Shown in pieces: positions 6,001-9,000 of a stretch of DNA of 11,040 bases (position 1 is its first letter; every line of letters begins with the position of its first letter). The DNA lies in the IMG/VR virus record IMGVR_UViG_2695420579_000005; one strand, 5' to 3'. The stretch comes from a virus. Lineage: Duplodnaviria > Heunggongvirae > Uroviricota > Caudoviricetes. The position numbers are program-made.

Positions 6001-9000
6001 TTCTTATTGACGGTCTGCGTGATTTCATTGCTGACATCCGTAATGGACGTCCTGATTTCAGCCAGGTCAGGCGCAAGCTGACCGTTATCAATCTGCGTCC
6101 ACAGCTCCTGAGCCAGATGGGTTTTCCCTATCTCGCCTTTGAAAAAATCCAGATAACCGGATGCATCATCACTCGGCTGACCAACAGCCTCCACGAATGC
6201 CGATTTGCCAACGGTGTTCACACTGCGGATATAAAAGTAATAATCATGGCCCGGTTTGATATTGATACTGGCGGCTATCCAGTACAGCGCCGTGCCAAGA
6301 TAGCGGGCGCTGGTTTCAACCTGCCTGATATCCGCAATCCGCTTTTCCGAGAACCAGAACTCAAACTGTACCGTCGGATCATAAACCGCAAGATGCGGCG
6401 TGGCGGTTATCTGAAAATAGCCCGGCGTCAGCTCAATCCGCGACAGCGCTGCCGGTGCGGCAATCCGGAACGATACCGACGCCGGATCGCCCTGCTGCCC
6501 CCACGCATTTACTGCCCGGACTGTCAGCCTGTAGTTCCCCAGCGCCAGTTGTGTGAAGCGGTAAGTGGTTTCCGTCGTCCGGGCCGTGCTGACCAGCCGC
6601 TCACTGCCGTCATCCGCTGTTACGGTCAGACGGAGCAGGAAGCTCACGCCCTTCACCACCTTCGGCGTGTCCCAGCGCGCCAGCACCTGATATTCCCCGC
6701 TGTCTGCGGTGACTTCGGCAGTCAGGTGCTGCACCGCTGGCGGCGTGACACCATTCACCGTGCCGCTCTGGTCGCCGTCAAAGTGCGCCCCGTTATCCAC
6801 GATGGCTTCTTTTTCCGGCACATGCTGCACGGCGGTGATGGCATACGTGCCGTCGTCGTTCTCACGGATACTCACGCAGCGGAACAAGTCTTTCTGGCTG
6901 GCGGTTCAGGGTATTTGAGGTAGCGTCTGACCGTCCGTTCAGAGCAACCAATCTGAGTCGCAATATCGACGATGTACGCGCCCTGCTGGCGCATTTGCTT
7001 TATCATGTAAAAGTCCTCTCTGCTCAGCATGTTGATGTCCTTTCTGGTGTGAGAACCTTAAGGAAACAACATGTTGGGTGGAGCGGACAATCCAAATGGC
7101 GAATTACCGTCTTATATCACTGGCGCTGACACTTCATCACCTCCGGACGTAAATCACCATCCTTTGGTGCATTCAGAAACGCGTTCAGTGTCCCCGGTGC
7201 ATCAGTCGGTGCCACATCAATATCCCCGACACGGGTTGGCTGCCAGCCGTTACAGTGAAGCGCAACCTCGTAATACCCCGGCTCAGCCTCAATCACATAA
7301 GCACCGTTATTGTCCGTCACGCAAGTGGCAACAACGTGTGCCACAACGGTCGGACTGGTTCTTCTGGCCCGCAGTTCAATCGCACAATTTACGACAGGTT
7401 TACCCGCCCCATCTTTCAGTACACCTGAAATCTTTACTGCCATATTCACCCCACAAAAAGCCCGCCTGAACCAGCGGGCAGTCATAACACTGTGTTACCT
7501 GGCTAATCAGAACTTATAACCGACACCCACGATGAAACCGTCAGTGCGCCAGTCACCACTGCCGGAACCTTCATAAGCAAGGTCAATGGCCACGGATTCG
7601 GTCGGGTTAAACTGCACGCCAGCCCCCCACGCCAGAGACGTGTTGCTGTGGCGACCGCCATCACTTCCGGTCAGCACATCGTGCGTTTTCCCCTTGTTGT
7701 CAGTTACGCGGAGATAATCCCCGGAGAAGGTCGACACACGGCTGTAAGCCACGCCCGCCATCGCATACGCGCTGAACCATTCATTCACGCGCACAGACGG
7801 CCCCGCCATCACGCTGAACCAGCGGTTACGCACGGAATCCTCATGCCAGCGGGTATCGCTGTAATGCGTTTTTTGCTCATCTTCAGCGTTGGCATAACTG
7901 AATGACGTAATCAGCCCCAGCGTGTCCGTAAACTCATAACGGTATTTCACGTTAATGCCCTTCAGGTCATCGCTGCCTGGCATATCAGTATGGGTCTGAA
8001 GATACCCGGCGCTCAGCGTGGACTGATGTTCAGACGCCCATGCAGGCGCACCGGATACGGCCAGGCAAATGGCTGCGGACAAAATGGCTGCACAAACTTT
8101 ACGCATAATTACCTCTCGCTTTTCTGCAATAAAAAAGGCACCATTTCTGGTGCCCGTATCTGGGTTATAAAATTCAGCTAATCGTGATGCCTGCAGTGGC
8201 TTTCTTCATCACCACAACCAGCAAATCGCTGATACTTGCTGTGGGATACCAGCCATTTACCAGCCATGCCGATACAGAAAACTCCAGCGTCATGTGACCG
8301 TGACCGGCAGGCATATCAATAACACCCGTATATATCAGCGTATTATCCAGGGTCGTTCGGTTATAAATTTCAGCACCGTTTTTCTTCACTATCAGGCGGC
8401 ATGACGAATAAATATTGTTATTCTTCCGCTCATGTTTAGCACCGCGAAACGCCACCGCGGGAATAACAATTTGCCGATCAAACGGCTGATCGTCATAAAC
8501 CCTGACGGTAATGGTCCCTGATGGCCACCTCTCCGGTGCCCGGGAGTCCCGTGGGAAAGGTTTGCCCACTGTTTTAACGAGATCGCCTTCAATCTGGTTC
8601 GCGGACAATTTTCCCAGAACCCGACAGTTCTTATTAATCGTGACGTTGTTGAGCGTCCCGGAGTTCGCGTTCACGTTACCGCTGATATCGGCATTTTTCG
8701 CCGTCAGCCGTCCGCCAGGTGTCAGGGAAAATGCCGGAGGATTACCGCCGCTGGTAATGGTCGGAGCCGTCAGGCATTTCAGGAACACGTCGTTCATGAA
8801 TATCTGATCGCCCTGACCAACAAACATCGGCTTTGTGTTGCCATTCGCAGGATTAATCATCGCAATCCTGTCTGCCGCCAGCAGCACCTGACTCTGCATT
8901 CCTGCTGGCGTATTCTCAATACCGGCACCGATACCCGCAATATAAAGGCGTCCGTCCTTCATCTGTTGCAGCTTCACAGCCCACATGCTGTTCAGGTTAT

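Follow-up and report, generated by a model that had tools for sequence, protein, structure and literature searches.

The point at which an insertion-sequence end appears to be fused to the interior of a J tail-tip gene is very probably a scaffold join, itself probably false, and not the product of an IS-linked deletion. The 11,040-nucleotide stretch analyzed here (the window) was identified by exact-protein look-up as the entire Shigella sonnei draft contig CXBV01000137.1 (11,040 bp, assembly GCA_001249635.1). Base-by-base comparison of the record with the window demonstrated one difference in 11,040 bases, at position 6887, which is N in the record and A in the window. This is the sole N of the record, and it separates the last IS21 base (6888) from the first J base (6886); a randomly placed N would land exactly at the IS21/J boundary with a chance of about 1 in 11,040. 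The A at 6887 is a gap or ambiguity character that was swapped for a base during preparation of the window, and on the minus strand the corresponding T coincides by chance with the true J2 base in finished genomes (TTG, Leu570). Position 6887 (6887..6887, no strand) is accordingly annotated as a scaffold gap that bounds two pieces, A (6888..11040) and B (1..6886). The original prediction described a sharp join to J at 6886/6887. J homology does start at 6886, but the apparent sharpness is that of a gap placeholder displayed as an ordinary base; with N as the joint base, the deposited sequence does not place IS21 and J next to each other and no sequenced joint exists. No microhomology was found at the apparent IS21/J joint, where CGCCAGC is shared by both partners 3-9 nt upstream, and the N makes the question of microhomology moot.

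Finished S. sonnei genomes carry the two pieces at two separate loci. One of these (L006/L008, 6446..10598) is colinear with window 11040..6888 at 99.78% identity, and the other (L016-L019, 4476..11362) with window 6887..1 at up to 99.96%, the highest value being that of L016. These two colinear blocks cover the window with nothing left over and no overlap, and both flanks continue normally past the join at their own loci. Across ten S. sonnei contigs that are finished or long, the IS21 at the stf1 locus continues past nt 244 to nt 428; the region consists of IS21 nt 1-428, an IS3-family element, IS21 nt 424-1098 and then another IS3-family copy (about 10355..13900 in L006-L015). The IS3-family element that splits IS21 is reverse-oriented, carries ORFs of 100 aa and 272 aa, and has nt 424-428 repeated on both sides. 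Farther on come the last part of the fibre gene, with DUF4376, and then sitABCD. At the other locus, J2 is intact at 1165 aa in the finished genomes. JBEAAA010000004.1 has the two loci on one strand, separated by about 689 kb, the J2 locus lying upstream of the stf1 locus.

This arrangement bears directly on the event first proposed for the window, a deletion that removed the rest of the IS, the rest of stf, tfa and the 5' half of the next J. In that reading IS21 entered stf1, and a deletion from istA nt 244 to J2 codon 570 then fused two prophage tail modules and left a truncated J2' that was either promoter-less or IS-driven. The window does read in this way, and its stf1/IS21 junction is a genuine transposition joint. 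However, both loci are intact and some 689 kb apart, the supposed joint is an N, and because the J2 locus lies upstream on the same strand, a simple deletion cannot yield the order A then B. We regard the deletion as highly improbable. From the JBEAAA010000004.1 arrangement, the window order could arise only as a tandem-duplication joint or an excised circle. Frequent rearrangement of the IS-rich S. sonnei chromosomes means that this isolate may have a different gene order from JBEAAA010000004.1.

For the IS portion of the window, a nucleotide search of complete E. coli genomes established the IS21 family, and alignments fixed the exact end (7131). The fragment spans 6888..7131 on the minus strand and consists of IS21 nt 1-244: a left terminal inverted repeat that begins TGTCAGCGCCAGTG at 7131, a 101-nt leader, and istA codons 1-47 plus 2 nt, read from an ATG at 7030. 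The predicted IS left end followed by about 48 transposase codons is therefore borne out (47 complete codons and 2 nt), while the predicted length of about 245 bp is corrected to 244 bp. All 244 positions agree with a complete IS21 of 2130 bp on the S. sonnei invasion plasmid, pINV, in which istA (390 aa) and istB are annotated, and the fragment is also identical to the chromosomal IS21 remnant of finished S. sonnei genomes. It shares 98.4% identity with E. coli copies annotated as "IS21-like element IS21 family" in the complete-genome search, and about 92% with ISEc62. The right end of the pINV copy (reverse complement, TGTCAACGCCACGA) is related to the left end TGTCAGCGCCAGTG, in keeping with the terminal inverted repeats of the IS21 family, which begin 5'-TG. 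The chromosomal right end is absent from the window and from the finished genomes, in which the element is cut at nt 1098. The N-terminal helix-turn-helix of IstA gives a weak HTH_23 match over the 47 codons, and the window contains neither istB nor the DDE domain. Transposase-mediated IS-adjacent deletion begins at an IS terminus and leaves the IS whole; the apparent endpoint here lies at IS21 nt 244, inside istA, which argues further against the deletion. Neither outcome named in advance as damaging to the original prediction was found (no IS match, or uninterrupted phage homology across the segment); the evidence against the deletion is of a different kind.

Insertion of the IS into stf, also proposed at the outset, is confirmed. 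The interrupted gene, a lambdoid side-tail-fibre gene (stf1', 7132..7443, minus strand), starts at an ATG at 7443 and is cut after codon 104, as alignment to intact stf demonstrated. Its codons 1-104 are 99.7% identical to the intact 470-aa stf of EIEC CFSAN029787, and the homology ends exactly at 7132|7131. Alignment of the window with two IS copies that lie in unrelated contexts demonstrated the same left terminus in these three different flanking contexts. Since stf homology ends exactly at the IS21 terminus, we conclude that this is a precise transposition joint after codon 104. A BLAST-based start of the IS at 7141 was rejected, as the extra 10 bases reflect a chance similarity (GGTGATG) upstream of the terminal repeat and the three-context and intact-stf alignments fix the terminus at 7131. 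The called 122-aa ORF at 7117..7485 is stf1' reading four codons (CQRQ) into IS21, and its product, named Shigella sonnei, recurs on about 533 contigs (543 index blocks). The insertion is thus genuine, and it is old and widespread in S. sonnei.

Two related E. coli loci were observed in the same comparisons. In EIEC CFSAN029787, which has the intact stf1, a frameshifted ipaH effector gene lies just downstream of the tail-fibre genes (L004, 11244..12886); this position beside the tail-fibre genes assigns the module-1 prophage to an ipaH-carrying Shigella/EIEC lambdoid lineage. E. coli VTB97379v carries an intact ISEc62, of the IS21 family, within a prophage J gene (L001, 6489..8600). This strain was rejected as an example of the same architecture, its element being intact and at a different site inside J, and it indicates that IS21-family elements hit tail genes repeatedly.

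Two ORFs depend on the IS21/J join, and the public annotation calls both, a point in favor of the deletion reading. The first, of 52 aa ("IS21 ORF1", CSP39468.1; 6872..7030, minus strand), is a chimera across the scaffold join, composed of 47 IstA codons, the codon ACN, which encodes Thr whatever the N, and four J-derived codons; the N also accounts for the failure of the record's nucleotides to translate to the query in the protein look-up. It ends in TGA, and a GTG in the J frame (6873..6875) overlaps this stop. The second is a 592-aa "J". Against the deletion, both products occur on CXBV01000137.1 only in the whole collection, and thus in no other assembly. Neither the stf1/IS21 join nor the IS21/J join is present in 5,426 complete E. 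coli genomes, and exact-pattern scans for both gave 0 matches in species-representative genomes, a set that is uninformative here because Shigella has no separate entry in it.

The original prediction also held that an IS-end promoter and the overlapping stop and start could permit coupled re-initiation of a truncated J. The overlap of TGA (6872..6874) with GTG (6873..6875) is indeed present in the window, but overlap and re-initiation alike span the gap and are therefore artefacts, and J2 is full length in finished genomes. A promoter scan found no sigma-70-like promoter in 6600..7700 on either strand, which also speaks against an IS-driven J2' left by a deletion. A single IS21 left end is not known to carry more than a weak promoter, and the strong one is known only from tandem IS21 junctions. 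We conclude with high confidence that the IS-internal "deletion", the truncated J, the chimeric 52-aa ORF and the GTGA overlap are all artefacts of the scaffold join.

The edges of both pieces lie at repeat or paralogue boundaries. Piece A ends within an exact multi-copy repeat, the pINV and chromosomal IS21 copies being identical over nt 1-428. J1 and J2 share an identical run of 79 nt, and its first base is where piece B begins; the base that precedes this run differs between the two genes (T vs C), a property shared by only 7.8% of positions. The outer end of piece B lies 31 nt into an IS1 copy (1..31, minus strand), beyond which IS1 InsA is called in finished-genome locus L018. In finished genomes this 31-mer is present twice in a span of 20 kb; short-read contigs ordinarily break at such repeats, and this break suggests a small k-mer. 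Both outer ends fit a k of about 31-35 (31 nt into IS1 and 34 nt before a J1-specific base). A single k-mer size for all piece edges was rejected, since the inner edges do not fit (piece A reaches 244 nt into IS21); this longer reach probably reflects later extension by a greedy gap-filler. S. sonnei IS21 copies do not diverge at nt 245, pINV and chromosomal sequences being the same through nt 428, and no ambiguity at nt 245 was found that would account for the exact stop of piece A. We also sought a simple cross-mapping geometry that would connect the two inner edges, and reconstructed none; both results weigh against the scaffold-join explanation. Partial IstA N-terminal fragments of 33-47 aa are found at contig ends in dozens of cases in S. 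sonnei and E. coli drafts, so it is routine for contigs to break some two hundred bases into IS21.

The mismatches between the window and the finished genomes demonstrate that this assembly mixes two paralogous modules. Piece A has nine mismatches, all with the module-2 allele (10904, 10864, 10862, 10859, 10856, 10383, 10367, 8068 and 8065); seven of these are in J1, each with the J2 allele, and lom1 likewise carries lom2 alleles. Conversely, all three mismatches of piece B carry the J1 allele (6310, 6309 and 6306). Every one of the 12 is thus a paralogue swap. We attribute the swapped bases to assembly cross-talk between paralogues; gene conversion in the isolate is the less likely cause.

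Accession style, product names and annotation style suggest that the Sanger Velvet/SSPACE/GapFiller pipeline made this assembly. In that pipeline, SSPACE joins give N gaps, and both SSPACE and GapFiller are greedy and "can lead to false joins" (PMC5320598). S. sonnei had the most fragmented assemblies there, with a mean of 405 contigs (PMC5320598). GapFiller fills gaps by extension from each edge, and gaps that stay unfilled lie in repeats with alternatives at equal ratio (PMC3446322).

A true link in this single isolate across a short unsequenced gap, such as a tandem-duplication joint of about 689 kb or another rearrangement, would also account for the N. The joint would then connect the IS21 remnant in stf1 with the middle of J2, and the assembler would have been blocked because both sides are repeats. 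The order A then B on the same strand has the geometry of a tandem-duplication joint relative to the finished order, and S. sonnei, IS-rich as it is, rearranges readily. A scaffold link also requires supporting read pairs, with a minimum of 5 in the published pipeline (PMC5320598). On the other hand, a novel joint has unique k-mers and is normally assembled or gap-filled, yet this one remained open; both of its edges are repeat edges, the assembly demonstrably confuses the two modules, and no second assembly has the join. We therefore consider a true link unlikely, and a joint between the stf1 remnant and mid-J2 is doubtful to the same degree. If real, it would add an extra distal J/lom/stf/tfa cassette immediately after a complete J, and the resulting direct repeat of about 1.3 kb, about 90% identical, could recombine and swap the receptor-binding end.

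Under the scaffold-join explanation, which we prefer, two separately assembled short-read pieces were set side by side by read-pair scaffolding, with the open gap left as N. Piece A (11040..6888) represents the J1-lom1-stf1'::IS21 end of a degraded lambdoid prophage, and piece B (6886..1) the distal 596 codons of J2 with lom2, stf2 and tfa2 of a different prophage. We infer that the link is false and arose via cross-mapping between paralogues and repeats, and a greedy gap-filler probably extended both edges into the gap until it stalled. The real genome most likely has an IS21 that extends beyond nt 244, as do all the finished S. sonnei genomes examined, and a J2 of full length. The sole biological event at this site is then the old transposition of IS21 into stf1 after codon 104, which inactivated that tail fibre, and the window holds no IS-linked deletion, no truncated J and no translational coupling of IstA' to J.

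All genes of the window are on the minus strand, in the order (from 11040 down) J1, lom1, stf1', IS21, J2', lom2, stf2, tfa2 and the IS1 end. J1, the tail-tip/host-specificity gene of prophage remnant 1 (8174..11040), is partial because the contig begins within it; codons 205-1159 are present, with the Pfam domains Phage-tail_3, Ig_J, Phage_Tail_Tip and Ig_GpJ_C. It is followed by lom1 (7507..8106), a 199-aa protein annotated as an Ail/Lom outer-membrane protein in E. coli relatives. The scan of 6600..7700 also returned one terminator-like structure, a GC hairpin with a T run between lom1 and stf1 (7460..7479, minus strand), and the stretch homologous to this region upstream of stf2 is 97% identical. 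In the second prophage, J2' (5097..6886) comprises codons 570-1165 (596 codons) of the gene that is full length in finished genomes. From the join (J2 codon 570) onward, the 1.3 kb common to J1 and J2 shows about 90% identity, but the final ~150 codons, which form the receptor-binding end, are strongly diverged (5097..5800 vs 8174..8900). The diverged ends indicate that the two prophage remnants encode different host-recognition domains. Downstream, lom2 (4544..5026) is truncated at its 3' end (160 aa vs 199), with about 82 bp of the 3' end missing relative to E. coli MB56. It has the same 160 aa in finished S. sonnei (L019), so lom2 is a real pseudogene of the lineage. The remaining genes of prophage 2 are stf2 (1362..4445), a 1027-aa side tail fibre, and tfa2 (781..1362), a 193-aa tail-fibre assembly protein with the Pfam domain Caudo_TAP, for which an identical protein occurs in 3535 index blocks.

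Biologically, the finding is minor: a known element, IS21, interrupts a tail-fibre gene in a decayed prophage, as it does in hundreds of S. sonnei genomes. Its value is methodological, in that a gap character shown as a base made a scaffold join look like a recombination joint with an overlapping stop and start. The public annotation already carries the two chimeric ORFs, CSP39468.1 and the 592-aa "J". When draft assemblies are scanned, N positions should be retained or flagged before any structural junction is interpreted.

The join resembles false or unclosed joins of the SSPACE/GapFiller type, which likewise have a single N between unrelated sequences, repeat edges, and flanks that lie elsewhere in finished genomes; in comparing it with such joins, the pipeline of the present assembly is one deduced from its records. 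With IS-mediated adjacent deletion it shares an IS end that abuts foreign DNA in the window, whereas here the breakpoint is inside istA and is not sequenced. In the element itself, the TGTCAG... terminal repeat is that of the complete IS21 of pINV and many enterobacterial plasmids, and the IstA N-terminal helix-turn-helix, weakly matched in the window, is apparently shared with them as well. Unlike these, the window holds nt 1-244 only, and the chromosomal copy in finished genomes is itself a remnant. Tail-tip proteins of the lambda J type have Ig_J, Phage_Tail_Tip and Ig_GpJ_C domains and a full length of about 1130-1165 aa. J2' agrees with this type, with the distal domains in the window and the full 1165-aa gene at the finished-genome locus. 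Both halves of the window carry the gene order and Pfam domains of the lambda-type J-lom-stf-tfa module of E. coli and Shigella prophages, from which they differ in that the stf of module 1 is destroyed by IS21 and the lom of module 2 is truncated at its 3' end.
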